Source: Polyangiales bacterium (GTDB lineage Bacteria; Myxococcota_A; Polyangia; Polyangiales; Houyiibacteriaceae). Taken from it: a stretch of 64,000 nt of DNA. Each line of letters opens with the position of its first letter. The stretch's first letter is position 1. A model generated the notes under the pieces. That model was not told the origin of the DNA. It did no database searches and worked only from the letters and a program-made list of their open reading frames with translations. Shown here in pieces: positions 13,843-58,591 of the stretch. Made by a program: the position numbers and the translations under genes. Where the stretch lies: the NCBI GenBank assembly GCA_045106895.1, contig JBGCFM010000172.1, positions 7,653-71,652 of the forward strand, given 5' to 3'.

Positions 13843-13886
13843 CTGGCGCTTGCGGCACAGGAACGACCTGCTACACCGCCGGTCCA

Positions 13887-14027
13887 ATGTCACTCACAAG
13901 CAAGACAGAGACTCGACGCAAGCGTCGTCACAAGAACTTCGGCAAAAAGCGGAAGAAGCTTCTCGCGAAGGAAGGCACCACGCCTAAATTCCCGATCCAC
14001 CCGGACGGCAAGAAGAGCTCCGACTGA
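13887..14027 (+). CDS. possible small (46 aa) highly basic protein
   Basis: ATG-initiated ORF 'MSLTSKTETRRKRRHKNFGKKRKKLLAKEG...' with GC-rich third positions, followed by a clean intrinsic terminator. No convincing Shine-Dalgarno sequence. Confidence 0.35.
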   Translation: MSLTSKTETRRKRRHKNFGKKRKKLLAKEGTTPKFPIHPDGKKSSD

Positions 14028-32730: not shown

Positions 32731-32904
32731 ACGGGCGTGAACGGCTGTTGACGGTGCCAGTGGCGATCGCGACCAAATGGCCTGTTATGTTGTCGTGAGC
32801 TTCTGTTGTAGACCGAAAATGCCCTGGTTTTGTGGTATCTTAGCGCCTGGCACGAACGTCGCATAACATCGGGGCCGTACCCCCCTAACCCCCGGAGTCG
32901 CCCG

Positions 32905-33867
32905 ATGCGAGCTCGCTTGTCCACTGCTTCCCATTTCGCCTTTCTCTTCGCTCCCGCCATGCTCTTGCTGACGGGTTGCCCAATCTGGGGCGATGGTGGC
33001 GACCCCTACTGCAACACGGACCGCGATTGCCCTTCCGGAAGGTGCGACTTCGCCGGTCGCTGCGTGTTCGACCGCGATGCCAGCTTCCCGGATTCGAGCC
33101 GGCCGGACGTCGGAACCGATGACGCGGGCCCAACGAGCTGCCGCACGAATGGTGACTGCGCGACGGCGTTCTACTGCGACTCGGTCTTGAACACGTGCAC
33201 CGACTCCAACACGTGCACCGACGACAACAGCTGCACCGGTGGGTTCATTTGTGACTTCCGCGACACCTGCGTGCCGCCGGTTGACGGCGCCTGCCGCGAC
33301 ACAAACGACTGCACGGGCGGTGACCTCTGCATAGAGGGCTTCTGCCGAGAGCAGGACACGCTCTGCCAGTTCGGGTACGACTGCAGCGCGGGCCAGTCCT
33401 GTGTGAACGGCGCCTGCACCAACGTGTGCGGCACGGAAGCTCAGTGCGGTTCGGGCAGCTCCTGCAACAACGGCTTCTGTACTCCGACCACCGAGTGTAG
33501 CTCCACTTCCCAGTGTGGCGGCGGAGAGCACTGCGTCGAAGGACGCTGTCTCCCGGATTGCCAGAGCACGAGCTCCTGCTCCGGCAGCGCTGACTACTGC
33601 GGCGATGACATGTTCTGCCGACCCGACTGGCGTGAACGACCATTCTGTACTCTCGACACCGACTGCACCTCTGGAAGTGTCTGCCGTGACGGCGCCTGCC
33701 GCACGCCGTGCCCAACCGGAACTGACGCGGAGTGTCGCGCCACGGACCCTAGTCTCTCCTGCGGCGCCATGGACCTCTGTGTCTCCACGGAGACTCCAGA
33801 GTGTGCGCTCTCGAGCGAATGCACGGCGCCTGAGGCCTGCGTCAACGCTCTGTGTCGAGGCATCTAG
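32905..33867 (+). CDS. Cys-rich repeat lipoprotein (about 11 four-Cys modules)
   Basis: Lipobox 'MLLLTGC'. Repeated 'C-x5-C-x4-5-C-x5-C' modules, e.g. 'CRDTNDCTGGDLCIEGFC', 'CGTEAQCGSGSSCNNGFC', 'CTLDTDCTSGSVCRDGAC'. Confidence 0.7.
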   Translation: MRARLSTASHFAFLFAPAMLLLTGCPIWGDGGDPYCNTDRDCPSGRCDFAGRCVFDRDASFPDSSRPDVGTDDAGPTSCRTNGDCATAFYCDSVLNTCTDSNTCTDDNSCTGGFICDFRDTCVPPVDGACRDTNDCTGGDLCIEGFCREQDTLCQFGYDCSAGQSCVNGACTNVCGTEAQCGSGSSCNNGFCTPTTECSSTSQCGGGEHCVEGRCLPDCQSTSSCSGSADYCGDDMFCRPDWRERPFCTLDTDCTSGSVCRDGACRTPCPTGTDAECRATDPSLSCGAMDLCVSTETPECALSSECTAPEACVNALCRGI

Positions 33868-40891: not shown

Positions 40892-41521
40892 TTACTGCGA
40901 GTCGTCCGCCGTCAACTCGCCAACCACGATGGGAGGAAGGTTGGGCTGCGGATCAGGGTCGCCGGCAACGAAGTCAAGATCGAGGTCGAGGACAGGAGCT
41001 ACAATGGGAGCTTCCTCAACGCAGTTTTCCTCGCCACCATCGTCGTTGGTCTGAGGCTCAGGTTCTTCGCTGTCGTTGGATGGTGGGTTGCCGGGGGCAT
41101 TGGTCTGAGGATCCATTCCCGTGTGATCGGCTTCGAGCGTCTGGAGCGTGGCAACGTAGCCAAGCCATAGGGCGTCCACATCATCACCAGAACTCATGCC
41201 GAGTTCGTTCTCAACACTCGCGTAGGTGTCGACGCAAACGATGTGGCGGTCAACGTCGATGCCCACCACTAGCTCAGGCTGGCCTTCGGCGACCCCATAT
41301 GACTCGACCGTGTCGAGGAGTCCTTCGCAACCGGCGAACGCTGTCTCCCAGCGCTCGACTTCGATGGTCTCAAGAGGTGCAACATCTTCCAGGAGGAGGT
41401 TGTACGAATCCTGGCCAAGTGCATCGACGGTGAAGCCCACTTCGTCGCCGGCACAGCCGACAAGGAATGCGAATGCGCTGATGCACAACGGTCCTAGGTA
41501 CTGTCTCGTTTGCTTCTTCAT
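40892..41521 (-). CDS. very acidic hypothetical lipoprotein
   Basis: Lipobox 'FAFLVGC'. D/E/P-rich C-terminal half. Its ATG overlaps the TGA of the upstream regulator (ATGA). Confidence 0.6.
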   Translation of the reverse strand: MKKQTRQYLGPLCISAFAFLVGCAGDEVGFTVDALGQDSYNLLLEDVAPLETIEVERWETAFAGCEGLLDTVESYGVAEGQPELVVGIDVDRHIVCVDTYASVENELGMSSGDDVDALWLGYVATLQTLEADHTGMDPQTNAPGNPPSNDSEEPEPQTNDDGGEENCVEEAPIVAPVLDLDLDFVAGDPDPQPNLPPIVVGELTADDSQ

Positions 41522-44500
41522 GACTGTACCTTCTTATACGACTCCAAACCGTATTGCTTCACTAGCTGAGAGAGACGAGGTCTCTTCATGCCCAAAAGTT
41601 CGGCCGCTTTGGTAATATTACCCTCCGCATCGGACAATGCACGAATAATGCACTCTCTCTCGAGAAGTTTCTTCATCTCGAACAGCGAGTTTTCCCCACT
41701 ACGGATACGAGCGTAGAGTTCGTCCTCCATCATCGCGGGCGGGGCGACGCTTGCGCGGGAGGCGCGGTTCGGGCCATTTACGCCAAAAGACCCCGAAAAA
41801 GCCTCGAAATCCGCCACTCGAAGCTGATCGCCCTCAGAGAAGAGTGCGGCGCTGCGGAGCACGTTCTCCAGTTCCCGAATGTTCCCTGGCCAACCGTGAC
41901 GTTGGAGCATACTGAGAACGGGGGCTCCCACTCGTTTGGGGGATTCCCCCCGTTCGTCCGCGATGCGGCCGAGAAGGGTGTGGCAGAGTTCGCCCATGTC
42001 GCCGAGGCGATCGCGAAGGGCTGGCATTTCGACGGTTACGCCGCGAAGCCGGTAGTAGAGGTCCTCTCGGAATGTGCCCGCCGCGACCATGCCTTCAAGA
42101 TCTCGGTGCGTCGCTGCAACGATTCGAACGTTGACCTTAATGGACTGAGTGCCGCCCACTCGTTCGAACTCTCGCTCCTGGAGCACACGGAGCAGAGCGA
42201 CCTGCGTTCCAGGAGAAATGTCGCCAATCTCGTCGAGGAAGAGGGTGCCTCCGTCGGCGAGCTCAAAGCGTCCCTTCTTGCGAGCGCTCGCGCCGGTGAA
42301 AGCGCCTCGTTCGTGACCGAAGAGCTCACTCAGCAAAAGCGTTTCAACGAGTGCAGCGCAGTTCACCTTCACGAGTGGCTGGCTTGACCGCTCGGAGTGG
42401 CGATGAAGTGCGTCTGCGACGAGCTCCTTGCCCGTACCACTCTCACCTCGAATCAGTACGGTGGCATCGCTGGGCGCGACCTTGTCGATGACGTCCAGAA
42501 TCCGAAGGATCGGCGCCGAGCTCCCACCGATATCTGGGTAGCGTCGTTGGTGCTCGCTGCTGCGTTGTGGCGCAGGCAAGTGCGAGGGGCGCCTCATGTT
42601 TGGTGATATTGCGTTGACCGCCGCTTCCACGGAAGCGAGTTCCACGCGCAAGGGCCGCGTCGCCCAAGTGGTCCGGTTGGATTCCGGCACGTTCTTGGTC
42701 AGCGTGAGCTCAACCTCGTTGGCTTCCTGGAGAAGCGTTGCGGCGGAGGAGACGTTCAGTTCGTCCGCGTGGTAACGAGCCGCGCGGAGGAGGGCCTCGA
42801 GGAGAAGTTCGGCGTCACCAGAGGAGCGCGCGAGCTCGACGGCTCGACGGGCCGCGTTCCCGACGTCCCCGCCGGCAGCGCGTTCAAAGTCGGCACCAAC
42901 TGCGGCGAGCTCCGCTGCGACTTTTGGGGTTGGCGCAGTGGGTGCGGTGGAGAGCAGCGCGCGTGCGCCGTCGACGTCCCCGTCGTGGAGGCGAAGGCGT
43001 ACAAGTTCGACGACCGGGTCGATCCGTCGCGTGGAGCCCAGTGATTCGAAGAGTTCGCTGGACGCGTGGAAGAGCGCCGCTGCTTTGTCGTGCAGCCCCG
43101 CTACGGCTTCGACCCGTCCGCGTAGAAGAAGGCACACGCCGAGGAGGTATGTCGGTAGGTTGGCGCCACCCATGTGCTGAGCGAACTCGCACAAGGATCG
43201 GGCGCGGCTTACGTCGCCGAGGCTGAGATAAAGCTCGCCGAGGTTGATACCCACGCGAGTAAGCATCGGGCGGTTACCGAGTCGCTTTAGCTGTGCGACG
43301 GCGTGGTGGTAGTACTCGAGCGCTGCGCTGTAATCGCGGCTGAGGTGAGCAAGAACGGCGAGGTTTTCCGTCGCGATGGCCAAGTCGCGGGAGTCGCCGG
43401 CCGCGCTCGCTTCTCGAATCGCGTCTTCAAAGTAGGACTTCGCCTCGTCGAGACGCTGAAGACGCAGCATCGCGACGCCATGATTTGTGAGTGCCTGCGC
43501 TCGTTGGTGGCCAAGGTTTTTTTCGTCCGCGCGTTCATGATTGTATCGGAAGAACTCGGCGGCGGCGCCCGCTTCCTTTCTTGCGAGGGCGACCTTGCCA
43601 AGCGTGTTTCGCGCATGAATTTCAAGCGCGCGGGCATTGATGGAGAGGGCCGCTTCAAGGGCACGTTCTCCCCAAATCTCCGCGTCGTCGTACTCGGCCC
43701 GCTCGCAGTAGAGTTCAGCGAGGAGCGTCTGGACGGTGGTGCGTGTTTGTGCCTCGCCCGTCTTTTCTGCGCGTTGCTGAGCGGCTTTGAGAACGACTTC
43801 GGCTTCCCCATGTTCGCCGTAGAGAGTTAAGAGTCGACCCAGCCGATGTGCTGCCACCGCGCTCTCCGGAGCACGGTCGGCGAGTGTGCGAGCGTGGATG
43901 ATTGCGCGTCTGTAATCGCCGACGATGCGGTGTAGGTCGGCGAGGCTCTCGAGGAGATGACTCGGGACATCGTCGAGTTCCCCAACAGAGCGCGCCGTTC
44001 GTTCGAGAAGCGCTGCGGCCTCGGCGTGGGCGTGGCGCGCGGAGAGTCCCTGTGCCTCGGCGAGGGCGAGCGGAATCGCGGCTTCGATGTCGCCCGCGAG
44101 GAGCGCGTGGTGTGCAGCCATCGCCACACCCGGGCGCGCCGCAAAAACAGCGGCGCAGCGACGGTGAATACGAATGCGTGTCTCAGAATCGAGTCCGGCA
44201 TAGAGCAGCTCGCGGTGCCGAGCGCGCGCGAATGTGTAGCGGATGTTTCCGTCGAGTCGTGTCTCCAACACAAAGGGCGACTGACTGAGCGGGTGAACAT
44301 CGCTACTCGTCCGACCCACGATCTCATCCACGAGATCGAGCTCCGAGGGGTGACCGAGAACTGCGAGGGTTTCGAGGAGTGAGCGGACTTCGTCGCCGGC
44401 TTCTGTTAGACGTCGCTGAAGCTGAGCGGCTGGCGAGAGCGGGTCCGCCGCGAGGAGGAGCTCGATGGCTTCTGGGACTCCCCCAGTGCGCTCAAGAACT

Positions 44501-45336
44501 AGCTCCACGATTTGGTCGCTCTGGAGGTAGGCCCGGATCCCCGTGCGATCGAAGGGCGCCAGGCTCAGGACCGTGGCGGCGTCGTGGTTGTAGAGTGCGC
44601 TGAGGCGGTCCTTGGAGAGCGTCGTCGCGTTTTCGTCGGTACGAACCGATGACACGAAGAGCGCTTTGAGCGAACGCTCCGGCGAAACGCCTTCGGTCCA
44701 AGGTCCGCTGCCTTCGAAGAGGAAGCGGAGCAGCTGGAGTGTCCCGGCATCTGCTCGCTCGAGATCATGCAGCAATATCACCGGCGGCCGGAAGCGGGCG
44801 ACGTCCTGAAGCAGTGTGCGAAGCGCGTCGAAGAAGCGCAGTCGGCGTTCTCTCGCGCCATGGGAGTCGGCGTCATCATCGAGTTGCGAATGATGCGGGT
44901 GCTGATGCCAGAGAGGATGACAGCCCGAGAAACAGCCTAGATCTGCAACGTTTGACGACGGCGATGCGCCCATCTCGGACAGAAAGCTGAGGGCGTTTTC
45001 AACCACGGCAGCGAAGGGACCGAAGGCGGTTCCTGACTCGCATCGGCCTTCGAGAACGATGCCCCCTGTAAGGCGAATCTGGGTTCGAAATGCCTGAAGA
45101 AGGTAGCTTTTACCCGATCCGCTTGGGCCTTCCACGATAACGAGTTGCTCACCGTGACGTGCCGCCTCCATACGAAGCAGCAGTTCGTCCATTTCGTGCT
45201 CGCGGCCGATGCATCGGGTCGGAGCGGGCGGCATCGATGAATCACGTCTTGGAAGTCGTGTGAAATCTCGCACAGAAGAAGAATAGGTTCCTGCAGCAGG
45301 GGCATCAAGCGGCTGGGCATGGACGAGGCGGAGCAT
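41518..45336 (-). CDS. STAND-type P-loop NTPase (AAA_16-like) + TPR array + sigma-54 interaction AAA+ domain + Fis-type HTH
   Basis: N-terminus: 'IGREHEMDELL...VIVEGPSGSGKSYLL', 'VILLHDLERAD'. Middle: about 500 aa of TPR-like helices. C-terminus: 'LIRGESGTGKELVA', 'GAFTGA', 'GGTLFLDEIGD', 'NITKAAELLGMKRPRLSQLVKQYGL'. Confidence 0.85.
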   Translation of the reverse strand: MLRLVHAQPLDAPAAGTYSSSVRDFTRLPRRDSSMPPAPTRCIGREHEMDELLLRMEAARHGEQLVIVEGPSGSGKSYLLQAFRTQIRLTGGIVLEGRCESGTAFGPFAAVVENALSFLSEMGASPSSNVADLGCFSGCHPLWHQHPHHSQLDDDADSHGARERRLRFFDALRTLLQDVARFRPPVILLHDLERADAGTLQLLRFLFEGSGPWTEGVSPERSLKALFVSSVRTDENATTLSKDRLSALYNHDAATVLSLAPFDRTGIRAYLQSDQIVELVLERTGGVPEAIELLLAADPLSPAAQLQRRLTEAGDEVRSLLETLAVLGHPSELDLVDEIVGRTSSDVHPLSQSPFVLETRLDGNIRYTFARARHRELLYAGLDSETRIRIHRRCAAVFAARPGVAMAAHHALLAGDIEAAIPLALAEAQGLSARHAHAEAAALLERTARSVGELDDVPSHLLESLADLHRIVGDYRRAIIHARTLADRAPESAVAAHRLGRLLTLYGEHGEAEVVLKAAQQRAEKTGEAQTRTTVQTLLAELYCERAEYDDAEIWGERALEAALSINARALEIHARNTLGKVALARKEAGAAAEFFRYNHERADEKNLGHQRAQALTNHGVAMLRLQRLDEAKSYFEDAIREASAAGDSRDLAIATENLAVLAHLSRDYSAALEYYHHAVAQLKRLGNRPMLTRVGINLGELYLSLGDVSRARSLCEFAQHMGGANLPTYLLGVCLLLRGRVEAVAGLHDKAAALFHASSELFESLGSTRRIDPVVELVRLRLHDGDVDGARALLSTAPTAPTPKVAAELAAVGADFERAAGGDVGNAARRAVELARSSGDAELLLEALLRAARYHADELNVSSAATLLQEANEVELTLTKNVPESNRTTWATRPLRVELASVEAAVNAISPNMRRPSHLPAPQRSSEHQRRYPDIGGSSAPILRILDVIDKVAPSDATVLIRGESGTGKELVADALHRHSERSSQPLVKVNCAALVETLLLSELFGHERGAFTGASARKKGRFELADGGTLFLDEIGDISPGTQVALLRVLQEREFERVGGTQSIKVNVRIVAATHRDLEGMVAAGTFREDLYYRLRGVTVEMPALRDRLGDMGELCHTLLGRIADERGESPKRVGAPVLSMLQRHGWPGNIRELENVLRSAALFSEGDQLRVADFEAFSGSFGVNGPNRASRASVAPPAMMEDELYARIRSGENSLFEMKKLLERECIIRALSDAEGNITKAAELLGMKRPRLSQLVKQYGLESYKKVQS

Positions 45337-45348
45337 AGGCCCTCTAAA

Positions 45349-45364
45349 AGCAAGAGCTGTACCG
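45349..45364 (-). promoter_or_regulatory. sigma-54 (-24/-12)-like promoter element upstream of the STAND-EBP gene
   Basis: Minus strand reads CGGTACAGCTCTTGCT against the consensus TGGCAC-N5-TTGCW. The GG and GC are correctly spaced and TTGC is intact. The -12 C lies only 13 nt from the annotated ATG. Confidence 0.3.
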
Positions 45365-45423
45365 AGCTGTTTGCTAGTATTTAGGGGGTTAATCGCCGCT
45401 TCGGCGTCAATTTTCTTACGGCG

Positions 45424-46812
45424 CTAGGTGGAACGAAATTCGTCGAGATTTATCCCGAAACGTTTCGCCCACCGATGAATCTGCATTCGTTCTTTGCCCA
45501 GTTCGCGCCCTGCGGCGGCGACGTTGCCTTGGTGACGGGTCAAAAGCGCCCGAAGTTCTGCCTCCGTCGGGACCGTCGACGTCACAGGCATAGAGTTTCG
45601 AGGGGCTTGCGCGAGGTCGCCATGTGTTTCGAGGACGTCCTGCACGTTGCGGGGCAAAACGCGGGCCTCCAGGTCGCCGCTCTCGTGGAGCGCTAAGGAA
45701 ACGCGCACGGCGCTCTCGAGTTCACGCACATTGTAGGGCCACGGGTAGTGCGCGACGCACAGCATGAAAGGCAGCGAGACGCTCATATTGGATGCGCCGG
45801 CGTTGTTCAAAAAGTACCTGACGAGGGGGTAGAGGTCTTCCAGTCGCTGGGAGAGCGCGGGAAGACGAATCTCGACTTCTCGCAGTCTCGCGAGGAGGTC
45901 ACCACGGAACTCTCCATTGGCCACGCGCTGGTCCAGGTCTCGGTGTGTTGCACAGACGACTCGCACGTCGACAGGCTCCGGAACCGTGGCACCGATCGGG
46001 AGCACCATTCTCTCCTGAAGAACGCGAAGGAGCTTCGCCTGAGCCTCCACCGGCATGTCGCCGATCTCGTCTAGAAAAAGCGTCCCCCCATTGGCGGTTT
46101 GAATCAGGCCTGCTTTGTCGGTGTTCGCGCCGGTGAAGGCTCCCTTGCGGTAACCGAATAGTTCACTCTCGAGCAGGGTGGCTGGTAACGCTGCGCAGTT
46201 GATGGCCTGAAACGGACCCGCGCGACCACTGCGGCCGTGGAGCTCGCGCGCGATGAGTTCTTTGCCCGTGCCACTCTCTCCATAGACGACGGCGGACAGA
46301 GACGTCGCTGCGACTTTGTCGACGAGACCCACGACTCGGTCGATTTGGTAGCCGCCGACCAAGAGCTCGCTCTTCGCGTGCCCAAGGCCCCGCGCGAGTT
46401 TCACTATGCTGCCGTCGATTCGATATGCACCGTAGGCGTAGGCGTTGGCTCCGGTGAAGCGGAAGATGGTGTCGCCGACACGGACGACATCGTGCTCTTT
46501 GAGCACGCACGTTTGAATTCGTTTGCCGTTGACCATCGTCCCGTTGGTGGAGCCCAGGTCTTCGAGGAGCGCGCCTTCTTTGCCAATGGTCACGCGCGCG
46601 TGGTGCCGCGACACAGCGGACTCGGCGATGGCCAAGTCGTTGGCGGCTTCGCGTCCGAGGGTTGTCACCGCCGTCGCGAAGGGGAGCACCGACGGCAGAT
46701 GCGCGTGCAAGCGTGAGTAGACGAGGACAAATCCCGAGGTGGAGTCCTCGGCGATGGTGCCAGCCATCGTCGAGATCGACGCGGTCGTTGAGCCATGGTC
46801 AGGAGAAGTCAC
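45424..46812 (-). CDS. FHA-domain sigma-54-dependent transcriptional activator
   Basis: FHA: 'TLGREAANDLAI..SAVSRHHARV...LEDLGSTNGTMVNGKRI'. AAA+: 'VYGESGTGKELIA', 'GAFTGA', 'GGTLFLDEIGD'. HTH: 'GNVAAAGRELGKERMQIHRWAKRFGI'. Confidence 0.9.
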   Translation of the reverse strand: MTSPDHGSTTASISTMAGTIAEDSTSGFVLVYSRLHAHLPSVLPFATAVTTLGREAANDLAIAESAVSRHHARVTIGKEGALLEDLGSTNGTMVNGKRIQTCVLKEHDVVRVGDTIFRFTGANAYAYGAYRIDGSIVKLARGLGHAKSELLVGGYQIDRVVGLVDKVAATSLSAVVYGESGTGKELIARELHGRSGRAGPFQAINCAALPATLLESELFGYRKGAFTGANTDKAGLIQTANGGTLFLDEIGDMPVEAQAKLLRVLQERMVLPIGATVPEPVDVRVVCATHRDLDQRVANGEFRGDLLARLREVEIRLPALSQRLEDLYPLVRYFLNNAGASNMSVSLPFMLCVAHYPWPYNVRELESAVRVSLALHESGDLEARVLPRNVQDVLETHGDLAQAPRNSMPVTSTVPTEAELRALLTRHQGNVAAAGRELGKERMQIHRWAKRFGINLDEFRST

Positions 46813-46858: not shown

Positions 46859-48187
46859 TCAGCCCGTGGCGGAGTTCGGGTCACCGCGCGAGTCCCTAAG
46901 TACGGCGAAGAGATCATGAATATCAAAGGGTTTTGGCAGCCAAGCGTCAGGCGGACCTGCGAGCGTCCCTGGGTCGAGCTGTCCGCTCGTGACGACGGTT
47001 CGTTTGACCAAACCCCTGGCTCGAAGCTCCTGCAGGAGAACATCACCACGTCCGTCGGGGAGAGTGAGGTCCGCGAGAGCCACGTCGAAGGGTCCGGTGG
47101 CGTCCCTCGCTTCGATCATGTTGGTGACGGCGGTGACGTTGATACCTCGAAGCCCAAGGGTGGTTTCAATGAGCTCACGGACACCATCATCGTCTTCAAC
47201 GACCAGCAAACGTTTGGGGAGGCGGCCAACAACCACTCCGCTGACGCGTTCCGCTTCTCCGCTTTCATCGACGAGCACCGCCCGCGGCAGCGTCACTTCA
47301 AACTGTGAACCTTCACCAAGCGTGCTGTTCAGCTGAACGCCGCCGTTCACTTGCTCCAGAGTTCGCCACACCGTCGCAAGACCAAGGCCGGTTCCGCCCG
47401 GGCGACGTGAGTAGCTCGAATCATAAATTTTGTTTTGCGCCTCGCGCGATATTCCCGGGCCCTCGTCGGAGACCCGGATTCGCACGAACTCTTCCTCGCG
47501 CTCGCAGCGAATGCGCACGACGCCACCCTCAGGCTGGATTTGCACAGCATTGAGGGCAAGGTTCCAGACGACGCGGAATACCGCCGCTCGGTGGGCAACG
47601 GTCCAGCCCAGCGTCGGTGTGTCCGTGTGAATTCGGACGTTGTGACGAAGCGCGATGGGATGGAGCAAACCGGCCACGTCACGGCACACAGCGGCGGCGT
47701 CGCAAGAGTCGTGATCGGTAGCGTGATGAAAGGACAGCACGTCGCGAGCGATTCGTTGCGCGGAGGCGGCAGCGCTCTCGACGGTCAGGAGCGCCTCGCG
47801 CATCTTGGATGTTTCGTCGAGCCCGAGCTGTGCCCAGCCACTGATGGCGCTCAGCGCGTTGGCGAGCTCATGCGCCGCGCTGAGGGCCAGTTCTTCGGAT
47901 TCACTCCGTTTTGGCGCTGGTTTGATGACGAGGATTCGGCAGTCCTCTTCGCACACGAAGTAGCCAGTTTCGCCGGAGGAGGCGACGACGGTCGAATGAG
48001 CGCTGCCCACGCCGGGGGCGGCCTGACCCAATATTGCGACCGTCGCGGCGTCGAAGGTAATCCCCAAAACACTTCTCTGAAGGTCTTCGCTCGCCTGGAG
48101 GGGCTGTCCTTTCGAAGCGAAAACCCAGGACCAGCCGTTTTCGGCGGCCAGGAAGAGTATCGGGTTTGTTTTGGGAATTGTGGGCAT
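46859..48187 (-). CDS. soluble hybrid histidine kinase (unknown N-terminal domain, HisKA, HATPase, receiver)
   Basis: H-box 'AAHELANALSAISGW', 'WNLALNAVQ', 'VSDEGPGI', 'GTGLGLAT'. Receiver: 'LLVVEDDDGVRELI', 'DLTLPDG', 'LPKPF'. No TM segment. Confidence 0.85.
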   Translation of the reverse strand: MPTIPKTNPILFLAAENGWSWVFASKGQPLQASEDLQRSVLGITFDAATVAILGQAAPGVGSAHSTVVASSGETGYFVCEEDCRILVIKPAPKRSESEELALSAAHELANALSAISGWAQLGLDETSKMREALLTVESAAASAQRIARDVLSFHHATDHDSCDAAAVCRDVAGLLHPIALRHNVRIHTDTPTLGWTVAHRAAVFRVVWNLALNAVQIQPEGGVVRIRCEREEEFVRIRVSDEGPGISREAQNKIYDSSYSRRPGGTGLGLATVWRTLEQVNGGVQLNSTLGEGSQFEVTLPRAVLVDESGEAERVSGVVVGRLPKRLLVVEDDDGVRELIETTLGLRGINVTAVTNMIEARDATGPFDVALADLTLPDGRGDVLLQELRARGLVKRTVVTSGQLDPGTLAGPPDAWLPKPFDIHDLFAVLRDSRGDPNSATG

Positions 48188-48296: not shown

Positions 48297-49340
48297 ATGT
48301 TGAGACTCATGATTCGCGCTAATCTAATGGTTTGCCTCGTTGTTCTCTTCTCAGCTTGCGCTCAAGGAGGGACAGGACGAATGGACTCGGGGACACCCGC
48401 AGTGGATGTTCCGGAGGTCGACGCAGGAAATCCGTGTGTGCCTGCGTGCGAAGGGGGCGAAACCTGCGTGTCGGGTGAGTGCATGCCGATGTCGATGTGT
48501 GGCCTGGATGGGATGTGTCCCGTTGGACAGAGCTGCTGTCCCACGGGCTGCTCGGCGCTGCCCACGGACCCCGCCAATTGCGGCAGCTGCGGTCGTGACT
48601 GTGGCGATACCGGTGATGCCTGTGTGTCTGGGCAGTGTCGCTGTCATGGTGCGTCCAGCTGCATTGATGGCGACGCATGCTGCGATGATGGCTGCGCCAA
48701 CTTGCTTGAATCACCGACCAACTGCGGAGCCTGTGGAATGGTGTGTGGGGATGGCCAAATTTGCGAAGGAGGATCTTGCGTGACTCCGCCCTGCGATCCT
48801 GCCTGCACCAACGATGAAGTCTGCGACGCCGAAACCAGCCTGTGCATGTGTGGCGGCGGGCCGGCGTGTGCGTCGGGTCAAGCATGTTGTGGCGCCGCGT
48901 GCATCGACACGCAGGTGGATCGCAACAACTGCGGTGCGTGCGGGATGGTGTGCACAGGAGCGCAGGTCTGCCTCGACGGAAGCTGCACCACGGATATTCC
49001 TTGTGACCCCACATGTGCGGCGGGAGAGACTTGCAATGCTGGCGTTTGCCAGTGCGGCGCTGGCGCCGCGTGTGGGCCTGGAAGCGCGTGCTGTGGCGGT
49101 TCCTGCGCGGCAACACAGACAGACAACCTGAACTGCGGGCGTTGTGGAAACTCCTGCGGCGCTGGTTCTTGTTGCGCCGGCTCCTGCGCGAGCACCTCTA
49201 CGGATACGAATAACTGCGGAGGGTGTGGCCGTTCCTGCGGGGATGACGCGGACAGCTGCAACGGAGGCAGCTGCCAGTGTGGATCGGGCCCTTCGTGTCT
49301 CCTGGGACTACCTTGTATTTTGGGCGTCTGCATCATCTGA
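48297..49340 (+). CDS. secreted Cys-rich protein with five Stig1-like 'CC..C......NCG.CG..C' repeats
   Basis: Signal/lipobox-like 'LMVCLVVLFSAC'. Five motifs: 'NCGSCGRDC', 'NCGACGMVC' (twice), 'NCGRCGNSC', 'NCGGCGRSC', each preceded by 'CC..(G)C'. Confidence 0.75.
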   Translation: MLRLMIRANLMVCLVVLFSACAQGGTGRMDSGTPAVDVPEVDAGNPCVPACEGGETCVSGECMPMSMCGLDGMCPVGQSCCPTGCSALPTDPANCGSCGRDCGDTGDACVSGQCRCHGASSCIDGDACCDDGCANLLESPTNCGACGMVCGDGQICEGGSCVTPPCDPACTNDEVCDAETSLCMCGGGPACASGQACCGAACIDTQVDRNNCGACGMVCTGAQVCLDGSCTTDIPCDPTCAAGETCNAGVCQCGAGAACGPGSACCGGSCAATQTDNLNCGRCGNSCGAGSCCAGSCASTSTDTNNCGGCGRSCGDDADSCNGGSCQCGSGPSCLLGLPCILGVCII

Positions 49341-49379: not shown

Positions 49380-50849
49380 TCACTTGCCTTGCATGACTTG
49401 GTTTCGTCCAGCCGCCTTCGCTCGATACAGCGCCTCATCCGCGGAGCGCACCATGTTCTCAAGGTCAATGCCGATGCTGTATTGGGTGACGCCCGCGCTT
49501 AGAGTCACTTTCTCTGGGCCGTCGACGAATGGTCCGAGTGCCTCGACTGCCGCCCTAAATCGCTCAGCAACAACTGTTGCCCCAGCGAGTTCGGTTTCTG
49601 GAAGTACCGCCAAGAACTCCTCGCCTCCCCAACGTCCGATGAGGTCGACCTCTCGCACGGCGGTTTCAAGGGCGCGGCTGACCGCACGCAGGACTTCGTC
49701 ACCACGGTTGTGACCAAAGGTGTCGTTGACGGCTTTGAAGTGGTCGATGTCGCAGAGAATCACCGAAACCGGCGTGCCGTATCGTGCACCACGTGCGGTC
49801 TCTTCGCGCATTCGGTTTGTGATCGTACGGCGGTTCCGCAGGCCTGTCAGGCCATCGGTGGTCGCAAGGTGGCGAGTTTCCTCCACGAGGAGCATCGACT
49901 TGATCACCGGTCCAAGAGCGGCTGCGAGCCAGGATGCGGTGTCCTTGTCGTCCCGCCCGATTCCCCGGCGCCCTCCATAGAGCCTGAGCTGTCCGATGAG
50001 TTCACGGCCCGCGAGGATGGGCTCTGTTGCCACCTCTCCGGGTTCCGGCGAGCCGAGAGTCGATAGCTCCGAGCGACGAATATGAGAGGGGGGGGCGGTG
50101 GGCGCGAGGCCTAAGCTCAAGAGGTCGCGCCGGTCTGGTGTTTCTGGCCAAGCGCCACGACAGAGAAGTCCCGAGCTGTTTGTGGGTCTCCCTCCGTTTC
50201 CGTCGATGCGCAAGATGGCGTAGGGACACGCGAGAACGTCGTCGAACAAGCGCAGGGCGCCTTCCATCAACGCGCTCCTGTCTTCGACATGAGTCATCAG
50301 CGAGCGCGCTTCGCGGTCGATGACGGCTTGGAGCAGGTGATCGTCAAGAACACGTGCAAGACGCTCAAGCGGGTCGACGTTGCGGCGAGGGCCGCGAACA
50401 GGTTTTGAGCCGGGCCTCGCGGCGAGGGCGCGGGAGACCGCTCCCGGGAGGGCTTCGGGTTCACGCTTTGAGACGTACGCATCGCATCCTGCGTGCGTTC
50501 CCCAAAACCGAGAGCGAGGACCGTCGTCGGCGGTCAGAAGAACGATGGGCAGGTTGGCCGTGCAAGGCTCGGCGCGGAGCATTCGGCACAGGTGCACTCC
50601 GCTGACGGCGCCCATCGTCACGTCGGACACGACGAGGTCGAATGGGTGGTCCATGCACAACGCGAAGGCTTCTTCGCCAGAGGCGGCGAGGGTGACGTCG
50701 TGACCCATGAGTGTCAGATGGGACTTGATGGCTCGGCGAGTGCTCGCGCTATCGTCCACGACCAAGACGCGCTGGCCCGACGGTAGCCTGCGCATTTTCT
50801 GAGTGTCCCGCAGAGCGGCGCTCTCAAGCTGATCTTGTGGAGATCCCAT
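49380..50849 (-). CDS. response regulator receiver + central domain + GGDEF diguanylate cyclase
   Basis: REC: 'VLVVDDSASTRRAI', 'DLVVSDVTM'. GGDEF: 'GRWGGEEFLAVL' with an RxxD I-site ('REVD') 5 residues upstream. Start uncertain (ORF is open to 51068). Confidence 0.85.
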   Translation of the reverse strand: MGSPQDQLESAALRDTQKMRRLPSGQRVLVVDDSASTRRAIKSHLTLMGHDVTLAASGEEAFALCMDHPFDLVVSDVTMGAVSGVHLCRMLRAEPCTANLPIVLLTADDGPRSRFWGTHAGCDAYVSKREPEALPGAVSRALAARPGSKPVRGPRRNVDPLERLARVLDDHLLQAVIDREARSLMTHVEDRSALMEGALRLFDDVLACPYAILRIDGNGGRPTNSSGLLCRGAWPETPDRRDLLSLGLAPTAPPSHIRRSELSTLGSPEPGEVATEPILAGRELIGQLRLYGGRRGIGRDDKDTASWLAAALGPVIKSMLLVEETRHLATTDGLTGLRNRRTITNRMREETARGARYGTPVSVILCDIDHFKAVNDTFGHNRGDEVLRAVSRALETAVREVDLIGRWGGEEFLAVLPETELAGATVVAERFRAAVEALGPFVDGPEKVTLSAGVTQYSIGIDLENMVRSADEALYRAKAAGRNQVMQGK

Positions 50850-50929
50850 AGGTCGAACGAACGGCGTCAGACGCCGCCCTTGTAGACTAGGAATGCAGAT
50901 TTTTGGGTCACGCACCAGGGGTGCGCCGA

Positions 50930-50945
50930 AAAACAGGCCTGTTTT
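50930..50945. promoter_or_regulatory. perfect 16-bp palindrome in a divergent intergenic region
   Basis: AAAACAGGCCTGTTTT, preceded by the hairpin CGCACC-AGG-GGTGCG (50911-50925). Lies between the REC-GGDEF gene and mtnA. Confidence 0.25.
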
Positions 50946-51040
50946 CTCGATTATTGCGAGTTCTGGCGGCGGCTCGGGTCGGCAGAGGCGCGATCCGGCC
51001 TCTTGGCGTGGGAGGCTCGGGCGTCCATGCTGCGCGACAA

Positions 51041-52156
51041 ATGACCTTTCACGTCTCCGCGCCCCCATCCTTATCCCGGCCGCCCCTTACCGGCGCAGAC
51101 TGCGCTTTCTTCGCCGTAGAATATGAGCCTGCCACGGGCGAAGTTCTCATGCTGGACCAGCGACGCTTGCCAGGAGAAGTGCTTTATCATCGACTCAAGA
51201 CCCCTGATGAGGTCGCGGATGGAATCCGAGACATGGTGGTTCGCGGCGCGCCGGCCATCGGCATCAGCGCCGGCTACGCTCTCGCGATGGTCGCTCGTGC
51301 AGAAGAGGGCGACGCGGCGAGTTTCTTGATGGCCATCGGAGGTGCGAGTCGAGTCCTCGGCGCCACACGACCGACCGCCATCAACTTGGCCTGGGCCATC
51401 GCGCGTATCAGTCGGCGCGCGGCGGATGTTGCCCGGCTTGATCCGAAAACGCGCGCGGCGGAGATCGAACGCGAGGCGGATCTGATTCACTCCGAAGACG
51501 TGGCCTCGTGCGAAAAAATGGGACAGGCGGGGGCCGTGGACGTTCCTGAGGGGGCGACGATTCTCACGCACTGCAACGCGGGAGCTTTGGCGACGGGCGG
51601 GTACGGAACAGCCCTCGGCGTTATTCGTGCCGCGCACGCAAAGCAAGTCGCCGCAGGCGGGAAGGGCGTTCGTGTACTTGCCGATGAGACACGTCCGTAC
51701 CTTCAGGGCGCGCGACTTACGAGCTGGGAGCTTCATGCGGATGGTATTCCGGTAGAAGTGATCACCGACGGTATGCCGGGTCACTTCTTCCAGCGCGGCG
51801 AAATCGATTTCGTGGTGGTCGGCTCGGACCGAATCGCCGCGAACGGCGATGTCGCGAATAAGATTGGAACCTACGGTCTCGCGGTGCTCGCGGAAGCCCA
51901 CGACGTCCCATTTACTGTGGCGGCGCCTTGGAGCACCGTCGATATGGCGACGGCGACGGGCGAGGGAATCCCCATCGAAGAACGTTCCCGCGAAGAGGTC
52001 GCGACCATCGGGGAGCGAACTATGGTCGCTGAGGGGATCCCCTGTCGGCACCCTGCCTTCGATGTGACGCCAGCCCGTTTGGTGCGCGCGGTCTATACTG
52101 AACGCGGCACGTTTCGGCCCGCGCAGGGTGGAGTCCCGGCGGATCTGAACTCGTGA
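51041..52156 (+). CDS. mtnA: S-methyl-5-thioribose-1-phosphate isomerase
   Basis: '[10 protein letters not shown]', '[16 protein letters not shown]', '[10 protein letters not shown]', '[20 protein letters not shown]'. Start set at MTFHVS. Confidence 0.9.
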
Positions 52157-53460: not shown

Positions 53461-54684
53461 GTGGCACAGTCCGAGCGTGGGGGATGCCCTGGGCTCATGA
53501 GCGCAACGAAACCAATTGTCATAGGGCGTTCCCGCCAGAGTGATCTTCGCATCGATGATCCCACGGTGTCGTCGAGTCACGCGCGGCTCAGTTGGAGTGG
53601 CCTCGAAATCATCGTCGAGGACCTCGGGAGCGCAAACGGCACCTTTGTCGATGAGCGCCGGATCGAGAAGGTCTCGGTTCGCCCCGGTGCGACGATTCGC
53701 CTTGGCGAAGCAGAGTTGCCTTGGAGCGCGCCGGCGCTTCGAAAGTTCTTGCGCCAGGGCGCGACGGGCACGCTGGTCGCGAAGGCTATCCCCGGAAAAC
53801 GTTTCGTCTGCGGGCAATGCAACACCCGGGGGGTCATGCCTCCCGGTTTTCAAGGGGGGCTCCTGCGGTGCGGCGCGTGCGGCGAAAAGCTCGTTGCCGG
53901 AAAGCCCAAGCCGAAGCGGTCATGGCTTGGGACCGCGGTGCTTCTCCTTCTTGTGTCCGGGGGCGTCGCGGCCTTCTGGTACGTCATGGAGACACGCGGG
54001 GATGAACTGCGAGAAGCCGCGGGCCGCTTGCGCATTCCGGAGATGCCAGGTCAGTCGTCGAGCACAGAAGAGGCGTCGATACGCGCTCACTCTCGGGCTG
54101 AGGTCGTCGCCGCCATCGACTCGCATGATCCGATCACCCGAAACTACGCCGCTCGGGTTGCTTCCGACACGGACGGCCCATTTAGCGTCGAGCAAGTTGC
54201 CCGCATCTGGAGTCACGTTCGCGGCAAATGGCGATACGTCAACGACCCACGCGGCAGCGAGTATTTTGCGAGCGCCGCAGAGACCATCGAGAACGAGTTT
54301 ATCGGTGACTGTGATGACTTCGCCATCGTCGTGGCGTCGATGGTGGAGGCCATCGGCGGCGAAGCGCGCATTGTTATGATGGGCAGCCTCGAGGGCGGGC
54401 ACGCCTACCCTGAAGTGTGCCTGCCGATGGAGGCGGAAGAAGGAAGGACTCGCCTGACTCGACATTACCAACGAGTTCGTGACCCGAACCTTGGGCGTCA
54501 GAGGGTCCGGGAGTTCAACTACCGACACGACGAGACCTGCCCAGTCTGGCTAAACCTGGATTGGAACGCTGGGGTTCCAGGGGGGCCCTACGAGAGCGAA
54601 CAGTGGGCCGTGGCTATCTATCCGGATGGCCGAACGCAGACCCTCGCGCCGGCCGGCGCTCCCCCCGCTGCCCCCGCAGAGTAG
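53461..54684 (+). CDS. FHA domain + zinc ribbon + TM helix + transglutaminase-like (Cys-His-Asp) domain protein
   Basis: AGGAGA lies 8 nt upstream of GTG 53461. FHA: 'IGRSRQSDLRIDDPTVSSSHARL...VEDLGSANGTFVDERRI'. Zinc ribbon: 'CGQCN...CGACG'. TM: 'WLGTAVLLLLVSGGVAAFWYV'. Transglutaminase-like: 'FIGDCDDFAIVVASMVEAIG', 'GGHAYPEV'. Confidence 0.8.
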   Translation: MAQSERGGCPGLMSATKPIVIGRSRQSDLRIDDPTVSSSHARLSWSGLEIIVEDLGSANGTFVDERRIEKVSVRPGATIRLGEAELPWSAPALRKFLRQGATGTLVAKAIPGKRFVCGQCNTRGVMPPGFQGGLLRCGACGEKLVAGKPKPKRSWLGTAVLLLLVSGGVAAFWYVMETRGDELREAAGRLRIPEMPGQSSSTEEASIRAHSRAEVVAAIDSHDPITRNYAARVASDTDGPFSVEQVARIWSHVRGKWRYVNDPRGSEYFASAAETIENEFIGDCDDFAIVVASMVEAIGGEARIVMMGSLEGGHAYPEVCLPMEAEEGRTRLTRHYQRVRDPNLGRQRVREFNYRHDETCPVWLNLDWNAGVPGGPYESEQWAVAIYPDGRTQTLAPAGAPPAAPAE

Positions 54685-55804: not shown

Positions 55805-56716
55805 ATGAGCGATTTCAATTTCCGAGAATACGTCGAATCACGCGCCGAGGGACGAATTGGAGGGACCGAAGAGTCGCGCCGCTACGCCTACAAGGGCGAC
55901 CTGGCGATGTTGCGGACGTTCAAGAAGCTTCGCTACGTGGAGCTCGTCGTCGCGGCGGTCGTACGCTCGCAGAAGTCCATCGTGACGCATGGGTTCATGG
56001 GTCGTTCGGTGCGTGTGTCACCGCGTCAGGTGCCGCGAATCTACAACATCGCCAAAGACTGCGCCGAGCGCCTCGATGTTCCGGTGCCAACTATCTACAT
56101 CGCGAACCACCCACAGATGAACGCCTACACGTTTGGGACGGATGAAGACTCATTCATCGTCGTCCACTCGAAACTCGTGGACGACTTCAGCGATGACGAG
56201 CTTCGGTTCGTGATCGGCCATGAGATGGGGCACATCCAGAATAAGCACGTCGTCTACGGGACAGCGCTGCAGCTGTTGAAATCGAACGCGACTCTGTTCT
56301 TGCGTTGGCTTGTGCCACCCGCGGAGGTCGCGCTCGCGACTTGGGCTCGCCGCGCGGAGGTCACTTGCGACCGCGCGGGGCTCCTTTGCGCGGGTGAGCT
56401 GGCCGTAGCCGAGCGCGCGTTTCTCAAGATGGCTTGTGGCTCCTCAAAGCTCTACGAAGAGCTGGATATCGAGGCGTTTCTTGAGCAGCTTGAGGCCGGG
56501 CAGTCCAAGCTCGGGCGCCTGACGGAGATGACGGCGACGCACCCGTACCTCCCGAAACGCATTCGTTCTCTTCAGCTTTTTGCGGAGAGTCAGATGTATC
56601 GAAGCGCGACCGGCCTCGGAGACGATGGCTTGGCACTTCAAGAGGTCGATGAACGCGTCGACGAGATAATCAGAATCATTGGCTCGAAGAAGACGAGCGC
56701 AGAGGGAGAAGCATGA
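55805..56716 (+). CDS. soluble M48-family zinc metallopeptidase
   Basis: 'FVIGHEMGHIQNKH' (HExxH) and a downstream 'THPYLPKRI'-type motif. No TM helices seen. Confidence 0.85.
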   Translation: MSDFNFREYVESRAEGRIGGTEESRRYAYKGDLAMLRTFKKLRYVELVVAAVVRSQKSIVTHGFMGRSVRVSPRQVPRIYNIAKDCAERLDVPVPTIYIANHPQMNAYTFGTDEDSFIVVHSKLVDDFSDDELRFVIGHEMGHIQNKHVVYGTALQLLKSNATLFLRWLVPPAEVALATWARRAEVTCDRAGLLCAGELAVAERAFLKMACGSSKLYEELDIEAFLEQLEAGQSKLGRLTEMTATHPYLPKRIRSLQLFAESQMYRSATGLGDDGLALQEVDERVDEIIRIIGSKKTSAEGEA

Positions 56717-58467
56717 CTGAGTTTTCGCAGTTGAAGAAAGACGCCCTTGCCGGGCTGCGCCAGGTAGCAGCCCTTGCGGAGGAGTCGGGGGCCAGCACTC
56801 TGGCCAAGAGTCTCCGAGAAGACCGGATTCCGCGCCTCGAGGAAGAGAAATTCCACCTCGTCGTGCTCGGCGAGTTCAATCACGGCAAGACCACGTTCGT
56901 GAACGCGCTCCTCGGAGCGCCGGTGCTTCCGATGGGCGTCACGCCTACGACGGCGGTGATCCACTGCATCTCCCACGGCAACGAGAGTCGCGCGCAAGCC
57001 TTCAGCGGCGAGGGCCCTGGCAAGGACGTCCCGTGGGATGGACTCGCACGTTACGAAGTCGATGGCGGTGCGGCGGCGGACGACGTCAAACACCTCGACC
57101 TCACGTACCCGTCGGAGTTTCTCGAGGGGGGGATTGTCCTCGTCGACACACCCGGCGTGAACGATCTCAACCAAGCTCGCGCAGAGATCACCTATGACTA
57201 CATTCCGCGCTCGGATGCTGTGCTCTTCCTCCTCGATGCCGGACAGATTCTGAAAGAGTCCGAGCGGCGATTCGTGGCGACGAAACTCCTTGCTCAGTCG
57301 CGAGACAAGGTGATCTTTGTTGTGAACAAGATGGACCTTCTCGACGAGGATGAATGCCAAGAGGCGCTCGCGTACGCCCGACTAAACCTCGGGAAGATCC
57401 TCGAAGACCCGAAGGTGTATGGCATTAGCGCGGAGAAGGCCCTCGCCGGTGACTACGCGGGGAGCGGCATGAAAGAACTCGCCGCTGATCTGAAAGTCTT
57501 TCTGCGCGATGAGCGAGGTCGCGTCCTTGTGGACAACGCCCTCGAGAGCGGTCTTCGTACGGCGAACACTCTTCGTACGGGAATCGAAGTTCAGAAACGG
57601 GCGCTCTCCATGGAGCACGCGGAGCTCGAACGACGGCTTGAGACCCTGGACGCTGACCTAGAGGGGTCCGAACAGCGAATGGCTGAGCGCACGGCTCGTA
57701 TCCGCGAGGCCGTGAGCGCGGTCAAAGCGGTGGTTCGTTCCGATGTCGAAGGCTTCGCCGAGCGCTTTGCGGTGCAGCTGCCCGCGGAGATCGAACAGAG
57801 CAACGCCAAAGACCTGCGCCAGTATCTTCAGGGCTTCGTGGAAGAGCGCTTCCGAAAGTTCGCAGAGGACGAAGCCGAAGAGGTCGCGCGGCGCCTCGAG
57901 AAGGTTGCCGAAGAAGCCATTGCTTTCGTCACCGACGAGGCGTCAGCTCAAGCAGAACGGCTTGGGGCAGCGCTCGGAGAAGATGCGCCGGAGCTTGATT
58001 TGGACGTCAACACGTTCGCATACGACGTGGGTGTATTCGCCGTCGGTGCGTTTGGGGTCACGCTGATGATGCTGAGCAACGTCGTCGTCGGTGGGGCGCT
58101 TACGCTCGCTGCGCCGGTTTTGGCGATGCTCTTTCGGGGCCGCGCCGACAAACAGGTCAAAGCGCGTGCGGCTGAGGAGGCTCCCAAGGTGGTTCACGAC
58201 GCCGCCGGCAAGATGGCGGACGCCTTCGATGCCCGAATCGATGCGTTCGGAGACAAACTTGTGGAGTTCGTGACCGAAGCGAACACGGAGATGACGCGAA
58301 GCATCGCCGAACTTGTCCGTGCTGCTCGCGACGCAAAGGCCACGGGAGAACAGACTCAGTCGGCTCTCGAGAGCGACACCGGGGAGCAGCTGGCCCGTTT
58401 GGCGGACGTGTCCACGCGCATGAGCAAGCTTCGCAAGGGCCTTTGGACCAACGGGCACGCCAAGTAG
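56713..58467 (+). CDS. bacterial dynamin-like GTPase
   Basis: ATGA overlap with the M48 gene. G1 'LGEFNHGKTTFVNALLG', G3 'VDTPGVND', G4 'VVNKMD'. Long coiled stalk. C-terminal hydrophobic hairpin 'VGVFAVGAFGVTLMMLSNVVVGGALTLAAPVLAMLF'. Confidence 0.9.
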   Translation: MTEFSQLKKDALAGLRQVAALAEESGASTLAKSLREDRIPRLEEEKFHLVVLGEFNHGKTTFVNALLGAPVLPMGVTPTTAVIHCISHGNESRAQAFSGEGPGKDVPWDGLARYEVDGGAAADDVKHLDLTYPSEFLEGGIVLVDTPGVNDLNQARAEITYDYIPRSDAVLFLLDAGQILKESERRFVATKLLAQSRDKVIFVVNKMDLLDEDECQEALAYARLNLGKILEDPKVYGISAEKALAGDYAGSGMKELAADLKVFLRDERGRVLVDNALESGLRTANTLRTGIEVQKRALSMEHAELERRLETLDADLEGSEQRMAERTARIREAVSAVKAVVRSDVEGFAERFAVQLPAEIEQSNAKDLRQYLQGFVEERFRKFAEDEAEEVARRLEKVAEEAIAFVTDEASAQAERLGAALGEDAPELDLDVNTFAYDVGVFAVGAFGVTLMMLSNVVVGGALTLAAPVLAMLFRGRADKQVKARAAEEAPKVVHDAAGKMADAFDARIDAFGDKLVEFVTEANTEMTRSIAELVRAARDAKATGEQTQSALESDTGEQLARLADVSTRMSKLRKGLWTNGHAK

Positions 58468-58591
58468 CGCGTTCTTGTCGTGTGAGGGGCCAAAAAGCCC
58501 TTCATTCGCCGGCTTAAAGGGTTGCATTGGGGTGAGGGCGGCCGGACAATGGCGGCCAGCGGCTCGTGCCGCGGTGAGGAATACGAGCGAT

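Follow-up and report, generated by a model that had tools for sequence, protein, structure and literature searches.

Introduction

[quoted passage not shown] MalT, the activator of the E. coli maltose regulon, is monomeric and ADP-bound at rest and oligomeric and ATP-bound when active, and it is switched by a ligand that binds to its sensor. Here we describe a regulator gene whose product appears to join the two kinds of protein, an N-terminal STAND-type module with a tetratricopeptide repeat (TPR) sensor being followed by what is, by its sequence, a complete bEBP. The gene lies in a 64,000-nt window, the whole stretch of DNA that was analysed, from a Polyangiales bacterium (Houyiibacteriaceae; GCA_045106895.1, contig JBGCFM010000172.1, positions 7,653 to 71,652 of the forward strand). 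All coordinates below are window positions, and the amino acids of the regulator are counted from the first methionine (Met1) of its open reading frame (ORF).

The N-terminal part resembles MalT and PH0952 (6MFV), in which a nucleotide-binding oligomerisation domain (NOD), built of a nucleotide-binding domain, a helical domain and a winged-helix domain and marked by a P-loop, a GxP motif and a winged-helix histidine, is followed by an arm and a TPR-type sensor. Like MalT, the regulator ends in a transcription-effector module. MalT, however, acts through a small DNA-binding domain of the LuxR type in concert with sigma-70 RNA polymerase. In the regulator, this place is taken by another oligomerising ATPase, namely a sigma-54 AAA+ core, together with a Fis-type helix-turn-helix (HTH), and the Walker B motif of the N-terminal module is degenerate. 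A more remote resemblance is to the transcription activators of the AfsR/SARP-LAL group of actinomycetes (8K60, 8JKE) and to GutR, in which an AAA_16-type NOD is likewise found together with TPRs; leaving bEBPs aside, the N-terminal module is most closely related to SARP-AAA_16 proteins. These activators differ in that their SARP/BTAD effector is N-terminal and sigma-70-dependent, with no AAA+ sigma-54 module. MalT, AfsR and GutR are the proteins cited as transcription-factor STANDs in recent surveys. The AAA_16-TPR cassette is, in addition, joined to an output domain in the PknK-like Ser/Thr kinases of myxobacteria and actinobacteria, in adenylate cyclases and in LuxR regulators, all of which were distant matches of our N-terminal query (P0090, P0095, P0096, P0102); there, a kinase, a cyclase or a simple HTH serves as output, and no such protein depends on ring assembly or ATP hydrolysis for an action on RNA polymerase.

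With the canonical bEBPs the regulator shares a Sigma54_activat core with the GAFTGA loop, a lid and a C-terminal HTH_8 domain. It differs from them in its input. Canonical bEBPs are controlled by a REC domain (NtrC, NtrC1), a GAF domain (NorR), V4R (XylR, DmpR), CARF (RtcR) or FHA (myxobacterial members), or in trans, as PspF is by PspA, whereas the input module described here is about 900 amino acids long and is itself predicted to be a P-loop oligomerisation switch. The protein fits the 'type Ib' architecture of Francke et al. 2011, that is, another N-terminal signal domain followed by the activator core and HTH_8; TPR is absent from the text of the enhancer-binding protein domain inventory in that paper. 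The parts are familiar, but the wiring of a STAND module to a sigma-54 activator is undescribed in the literature that we searched: a non-exhaustive search found no publication on the STAND-TPR-bEBP architecture, which agrees with the earlier note on this DNA, whose author knew of no characterised example.

Results

A single reading frame encodes both modules

The regulator is encoded by one uninterrupted ORF of 1,272 codons at 41518..45336 on the minus strand (window ORF list), along which base composition is uniform. All of the motifs that the earlier note had read from it, IGREHEMDELL, VEGPSGSGKSYLL, VILLHDLERAD, GESGTGKE, GAFTGA and LFLDEIGD, are present in the translation. The domain types proposed there (AAA_16, TPR, Sigma54_activat and HTH_8) were each matched by Pfam, every domain placed on the regulator below scoring above the curated cut-off of its family.

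The C-terminal part has the features of a complete bEBP. The AAA+ core and lid occupy amino acids 933-1182 (41791..42540, minus strand), with Pfam matches to Sigma54_activat (PF00158; amino acids 938-1102, E 2.6e-73) and AAA_lid_14 (amino acids 1108-1179), a Walker A motif GESGTGKE that includes K970, and a Walker B motif FLDEIGD that includes D1035 and E1036. The sigma-54 contact loop GAFTGA (amino acids 1011-1016; 42289..42306, minus strand) is kept in 74 of the 81 homologues that were aligned and reads GSFTGA in 6. Taken together, the Walker A, GAFTGA and Walker B motifs of the core are kept in 74-81 of the 81 sequences. At least 68 of the 81 sequences retain GESGTGKE, FLDEIGD, RVLQEREFERVGG and WPGNIRELEN, the arginine fingers and sensor II being among the residues so conserved. 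A Fis-type HTH follows at amino acids 1225-1255 (41572..41664, minus strand; HTH_8, E 2.2e-08; conservation 0.86). Conservation along the protein is highest in the AAA+ core and the HTH, with a mean majority frequency of 0.86, which implies that the DNA target is conserved as well. Profile searches of the PDB matched NifA, ZraR, FleQ and NtrC1 with E-values between 1e-113 and 1e-84. The NCBIfam equivalog models for NifA, NtrC, NorR, RtcR and PspF covered only amino acids ~922-1265, about 340 residues at the C-terminus, and all of them stayed below threshold (the best, NifA, reached 377 bits against a cut-off of 529). This part is therefore a generic bEBP core that belongs to no named equivalog family.

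The N-terminal module resembles a STAND protein with a MalT-like sensor

The nucleotide-binding domain of the putative NOD spans amino acids 41-260 (44557..45216, minus strand). It is matched by AAA_16 at amino acids 41-209 (E 6.9e-24, 85.7 bits against a cut-off of 32.6), and its elements follow a beta-alpha-beta order in the structural model. The Walker A motif, GPSGSGKS at amino acids 70-77 (45106..45129, minus strand), conforms to the STAND pattern GxxGxGK[ST], and its residues G70, G73, G75 and K76 (G70-x2-G73-x-G75-K76) are invariant in the 81 sequences. The helical and winged-helix domains correspond to amino acids 261-402 (44131..44556, minus strand), where the GxP motif G286-V-P288 and His391 provide the expected STAND signatures; G286, P288 and H391 are likewise invariant. 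In PH0952, the P-loop, the GxP of the helical domain and the histidine of the winged-helix domain contact ADP, the histidine touching the beta-phosphate (PMC6468293).

An AlphaFold2 model of amino acids 35-935 had a mean predicted local distance difference test score (pLDDT) of 91.4 and a predicted template modelling score of 0.85. It placed the nucleotide-binding, helical and winged-helix domains and the helical repeats in that order, which is the NOD/TPR topology that the earlier note had wished to see confirmed in a model. In amino acids 261-402, the model has helices and a beta-hairpin and then a helix that bears His391. The arm and TPR sensor follow at amino acids 403-910 (42607..44130, minus strand), where about 25 paired helices are modelled with pLDDT above 90 (amino acids ~405-910), in good agreement with the roughly 500 residues of TPR-type helices proposed before. 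Pfam recognised TPR_12 in five stretches of the regulator and TPR_MalT at amino acids 611-855, the latter with 46.2 bits against a cut-off of 45. The TPR region also matched AfsR by profile (E 1e-18).

When the model was compared with solved structures by Foldseek, the best fold match in the PDB was 6mfv_A, that is PH0952, a STAND protein with a TPR sensor (E 3.2e-11 over 733 columns). It outranked pure TPR proteins, although TPR proteins of the LGN type matched as well. The template modelling scores of the match to 6mfv_A were modest (0.33 and 0.41), as they would be if the orientation of the domains or the number of repeats differs. Together, the sequence signatures and the model support the assignment of the N-terminal part as a NOD of the STAND type that is followed by a TPR sensor like that of MalT.

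The middle of the TPR region, amino acids 561-730, is the best-conserved segment of the N-terminal part and surpasses even the nucleotide-binding domain. This suggests that the sensor recognises a single ligand or partner that has itself been conserved. The sensor is joined to the AAA+ core by a tether (amino acids 911-932; 42541..42606, minus strand) that is variable among homologues and is modelled with low confidence over about amino acids 915-925. It has the lowest pLDDT of the whole model, with block means of 50 and 49 and values below 50 at amino acids 917-919. Insertions of up to 39 columns occur here in homologues, and the mean conservation of amino acids 881-932 is 0.53.

The N-terminal ATP site is degenerate

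The earlier note had described two P-loop engines in one protein. The P-loop of the first is indeed intact and the bEBP core is complete, but the N-terminal Walker B motif is not canonical, and in this respect the claim was overstated. The motif, V186-ILLHDLERA-D196 (44749..44781, minus strand), reads VILL-H190-D191 where hhhhD[DE] is the canonical form, so that His190 replaces the first Asp/Glu of hhhhDD. AAA_16 relatives fused to SARP, LuxR, kinase and cyclase domains carry hhhhDD or hhhhED at the same position. Among the 81 family members, residues 190/191 are HD in 34, DH in 15, HH in 11, HQ in 6, HG in 4 and something else in 11; no acidic residue is present at either position in 23, and D196 is invariant. 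In the wider superfamily, the lysine of the N-terminal P-loop has been lost in 28 of 88 representatives, and the GxP motif and the histidine are mostly kept, which suggests that the STAND ATP site has decayed repeatedly. The lysine-less representatives, which make up roughly a third of those examined and fall among P0138-P0283, retain the whole bEBP.

By these signatures, the N-terminal module looks like a nucleotide-binding switch or a scaffold rather than a second engine. We think that the window protein probably binds nucleotide and that its ability to hydrolyse it is doubtful. ATP hydrolysis by MalT is reportedly tied, to go by the title of the 2007 paper by Marquenet and Richet, to how positive and negative regulatory inputs are brought together. 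By analogy, a NOD that hydrolyses poorly would be expected to reset slowly.

An insert of the nucleotide-binding domain carries the clade-specific motif C135-x3-C139-H140-x2-W143-x2-H146 (44899..44934, minus strand). The motif is present in 78 of the 81 family members and is kept in distant representatives in which the P-loop has decayed. The pLDDT of this stretch is only 64-84. A reasonable guess from the pattern of residues is that it forms a candidate metal or redox site.

The fusion defines a large family within the Myxococcota

A search with the N-terminal 874 amino acids retrieved ~85 clusters (90% identity) that have the full architecture, with lengths of 1,213-1,435 amino acids and 42-97% identity. 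The complete genome of Sandaracinus amylolyticus (CP011125) encodes the same uninterrupted fusion. In a scan of species-representative genomes, 57 loci were found, all of them in Myxococcota (Polyangiales, Sandaracinaceae, Nannocystaceae and unclassified metagenome-assembled genomes), the nearest relative being a Polyangiales metagenome-assembled genome with 95% identity; the few matches outside the phylum were to the TPRs only. A HMMER search against 1.84 billion cluster representatives gave 95 matches below 1e-30, and among the best 150 representatives at 50% identity, 87 combined a NOD-like N-terminus with a bEBP core, the identity within the NOD falling to about 21%. The architecture is thus that of a large family confined to the Polyangia, within one phylum (Myxococcota), and with its 57 loci and 87 cluster representatives it is not rare. 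Names in public records are of the kind 'sigma 54-interacting transcriptional regulator', 'AAA family ATPase' or a composite NtrC/TPR label, and the cluster records of ten distant representatives carry almost no names or taxonomy.

Of 48 core-clade loci, 46 have a bEBP core behind the STAND-TPR part, the contigs of the other two ending early, and the two parts share one frame in 44 of the 46. In the distant clade (30-34% identity), the fusion is present in 13 of 14 loci. Neither half was seen as a stand-alone protein among close relatives, except as fragments at contig ends. That the ORF might be two genes joined by an error, a caution raised in the earlier note, is not borne out by these counts. 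Interruptions were seen in three related contigs. In locus L006, HTH_8 is split off as a separate 66-aa ORF (13693..13893), and L038 and L045 show a change of frame between the N-terminal part and the bEBP core. Errors of assembly or an occasional pseudogene would account for such cases.

The translation start and a sigma-54-type promoter

Several observations indicate that translation probably starts at Met35 (ATG at 45234) and not at Met1. In the 81-sequence alignment, the Met35 column is the start of 69 homologues. Gene callers give 1,237-1,238 amino acids for the closest relatives. In locus L003, the ATG equivalent to the upstream one is out of frame. Finally, the position of a predicted sigma-54 promoter places the first ATG of the ORF at about +3 to +5 of the transcript, the -12 element ending at 45350. 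The coding sequence would then be 41518..45234 (minus strand), that is, 1,238 amino acids from Met35 plus the stop codon. The first 34 codons of the long ORF (45235..45336, minus strand) would be non-coding and most likely form part of a 5' untranslated leader of ~105 nt. The Rfam and tRNA scans of the window were empty and the leader had no match in Rfam, so it contains no known riboswitch. Short blocks common to L001-L004 and L007, for example CGCCT..TTGA(A/T) and CCTAYYCTTC, are present in the leader (45235..45349, minus strand).

The promoter itself is a sigma-54-type sequence with a -24 GG and a -12 GC, cGGTACagctcTTGCt, at 45350..45365 on the minus strand, 129 nt upstream of the Met35 ATG; the element GGTACagctcTTGC (45363..45350) ends ~14 nt before the first ATG of the ORF. 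In the sequence of 77 loci (1.93 Mb, counted by strand), the pattern GG[CT]A[CT]N5TTGC was found only 29 times, and ~20 of these occurrences are 125-300 nt upstream of the orthologue. At a consensus score of at least 10, matches were found in 17 of 57 distinct upstream regions, compared with ~0.8 expected. The element is also present in loci that have no FHA-domain bEBP as a neighbour (L007, L023). A sigma-54 promoter in front of the gene would place the regulator in a sigma-54 circuit. The exact consensus TGGCAC-N5-TTGC has no match in the window, and a scan that allowed two mismatches performed at chance (55 found and 59 expected), the promoter having emerged from the comparison of loci only. 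No rpoN was found among the scanned ORFs of the window. A search for an enhancer (upstream activating sequence) among 8-mers shared upstream of the promoters was uninformative, being swamped by the C-terminal coding sequence of the neighbouring FHA-domain bEBP gene.

Another near-consensus sigma-54 element, TGGCACGAACGTCGCA, is present at 32848..32863 on the plus strand, about 42 nt before the likely ATG (32905) of a Cys-rich lipoprotein gene (ORF 32830..33867, plus strand). The element is identical in the syntenic locus L001 (~20540-20555, reverse strand), which is too close a relative to provide independent support.

Neighbouring genes

The gene immediately downstream of the regulator (40892..41521, minus strand) encodes an orphan lipoprotein of 209 amino acids, and its ATG overlaps the TGA of the regulator (ATGA). 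The two are predicted, on this arrangement, to be co-transcribed and translationally coupled. The lipoprotein has a lipobox (VGC), the conserved motifs AGCEG and CVDTY, a GDPxPQPN repeat in two or three copies and an acidic disordered tail. Among 38 core-clade loci, 30 have its gene downstream of the regulator, and its homologues amount to only 17 unnamed clusters. There was no Pfam or PADLOC match and no PDB fold match at E < 0.1, and the AlphaFold2 model is confident only for a small alpha/beta core at amino acids ~45-135.

Upstream of the regulator are a gene for an FHA-domain bEBP of 462 amino acids (45424..46812, minus strand; FHA, E 2.6e-17; Sigma54_activat, E 6.5e-62), which has a GAFTGA loop of its own and a Fis-like C-terminus, and a gene for a soluble hybrid histidine kinase of 442 amino acids (46859..48187, minus strand; HisKA-HATPase_c-REC by Pfam). 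They are found upstream of the regulator in 27 and 25, respectively, of 34 core-clade loci.

Discussion

How might the STAND module control the activator?

We lean, if only slightly, toward the view that the regulator is a sigma-54 activator with a MalT/PH0952-type STAND input whose assembly is gated as follows. At rest, the NOD would be closed on nucleotide through the P-loop, GxP and His391 and held by contacts with the arm and TPRs, and the protein would be a monomer whose AAA+ core, on its flexible tether, forms no ring. Binding of a conserved ligand or partner to the TPR sensor would open the NOD and allow head-to-tail self-association. The tethered AAA+ cores, gathered in this way, could then assemble at the enhancer into an active ring that remodels the sigma-54 holoenzyme. 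Hydrolysis and reset would probably be slow because the N-terminal Walker B motif is degenerate. The presence of the sigma-54 promoter suggests further that the regulator gene is either auto-activated, providing positive feedback, or turned on by the neighbouring FHA-domain bEBP as a step in a cascade. Multi-step cascades of enhancer-binding proteins are typical of myxobacteria. The central step, control of ring assembly in the activator by a STAND module, is plausible by analogy: most bEBPs are regulated by way of hexamer formation through the N-terminal domain (PMC3791423).

One could envision a more elaborate version, in which the STAND assembly nucleates the AAA+ ring and the whole operates as a self-reinforcing, slow-reset commitment switch for sigma-54-dependent transcription that drives the lipoprotein gene and receives a metal or redox input through the Cys/His motif. 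We consider this combination less likely than not.

Several observations weigh against the assembly-gated model. A profile made from the NOD only and searched against the PDB reached generic P-loop proteins and no solved STAND protein, MalT, AfsR and PH0952 included, so that membership in the STAND class draws on the AAA_16 match, the fold match and the motifs. STAND assemblies vary in size, the rings of MalT being open and of no single size, and would not obviously template a ring of six. The control could run in either direction, as activation through clustering or as relief of repression. The degenerate Walker B motif of the family and the loss of the P-loop lysine in the superfamily argue that nucleotide-driven switching is not universal and is perhaps weak here. 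The distant clade lacks the promoter, which also went undetected in about a third of the core-clade loci, and neither an enhancer site nor a target regulon was identified in our analysis.

A first alternative is that the NOD no longer works as a nucleotide switch and that the STAND-like fold and the TPRs form a pseudo-ATPase scaffold, a rigid platform on which a partner docks. The partner might be the FHA-domain bEBP, the hybrid kinase or an anti-activator, by comparison with NifL-NifA and PspA-PspF. Replacement of the Walker B acidic pair, which leaves 23 of 81 members with no acidic residue, would be in keeping with a scaffold, as would the persistence of the fusion in representatives that have lost the P-loop lysine. 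The middle of the TPR region is better conserved than the nucleotide-binding domain, and the FHA-bEBP and kinase genes are conserved alongside the regulator. The invariance within the clade of the P-loop glycines and lysine, the GxP motif and the winged-helix histidine, however, is hard to explain if the module does not bind nucleotide, and the regulator is kept in loci that lack both the FHA-bEBP and the kinase (L007, L019-L023, L036). We regard a scaffold as unlikely, although it is the strongest of the competitors.

A second alternative is that the STAND-TPR part acts solely within its own chain, blocking the AAA+ core or the surface that contacts sigma-54 until a ligand releases it, with no oligomerisation of the NOD. 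Negative control by the N-terminal domain is common in bEBPs, and the GAF domain of NorR is described as repressing the AAA+ domain; STAND proteins with TPR sensors, moreover, use several autoinhibitory intramolecular contacts. A fixed docked state is disfavoured by the long, variable and low-confidence tether, and the conservation of the NOD oligomerisation signatures also weighs against this reading. Intramolecular repression by itself seems rather improbable to us, somewhat more so than a scaffold.

Many bacterial STAND NTPases are defence proteins, and one could therefore ask whether the regulator is an immune sensor of the Avs/NLR type in an anti-phage or other conflict system, with a sigma-54 activator in the role of effector. 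Weak, sub-threshold matches to nSTAND1, nSTAND6 and NACHT were indeed seen, confined to the P-loop region. PADLOC, however, found no Avs or NLR match, reporting only RtcR-type matches on the bEBP core and a generic TPR match; the sensor is highly conserved and not diversifying; synteny with housekeeping and signalling genes on the chromosome is stable across genomes; and the neighbours are signalling and metabolic genes, with no defence genes nearby. We consider a defence role very improbable. Least credible of all is that a STAND-TPR gene and a bEBP gene were joined by a frameshift in sequencing or assembly: nothing in the window points to it and the only hints are the frame changes in the three related contigs L006, L038 and L045, whereas the fusion recurs in independent assemblies, S. 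amylolyticus CP011125 among them, is in one frame in nearly all core-clade loci and has no stand-alone halves among close relatives.

If the assembly-gated model is correct, then the Polyangia, a poorly studied and signalling-rich group, hold a sizeable class of sigma-54 activators that has gone unrecognised and that places one oligomerising P-loop module under the control of another. A natural STAND-bEBP fusion would show one assembly switch wired to another and would add a new class of input module for sigma-54 activators. The degenerate N-terminal ATP site offers a natural test of whether STAND proteins need hydrolysis for signalling or only for reset, and the conserved promoter of the regulator gene, the coupled lipoprotein and the neighbouring kinase and FHA-domain bEBP are handles for experiments.

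Other features of the window

Beyond the kinase gene, 48297..49340 (plus strand) encodes a Cys-rich secreted protein or lipoprotein with a Pfam match to Stig1 (E 7.7e-17), a family that takes its name from proteins of the plant stigma. A giant ORF of 3,757 amino acids at 1559..12832 (plus strand) matches only TPR-type repeats (TPR_7, TPR_8, TPR_14 and others), and does so over its whole length. A dense signalling neighbourhood is found at 49380..51068 (minus strand), 53461..54684 (plus strand) and 56713..59932 (plus strand), with a REC-GGDEF diguanylate cyclase, a protein that combines FHA with a transglutaminase core, a dynamin-like GTPase and a fusion of a PP2C phosphatase with a cNMP-binding domain.

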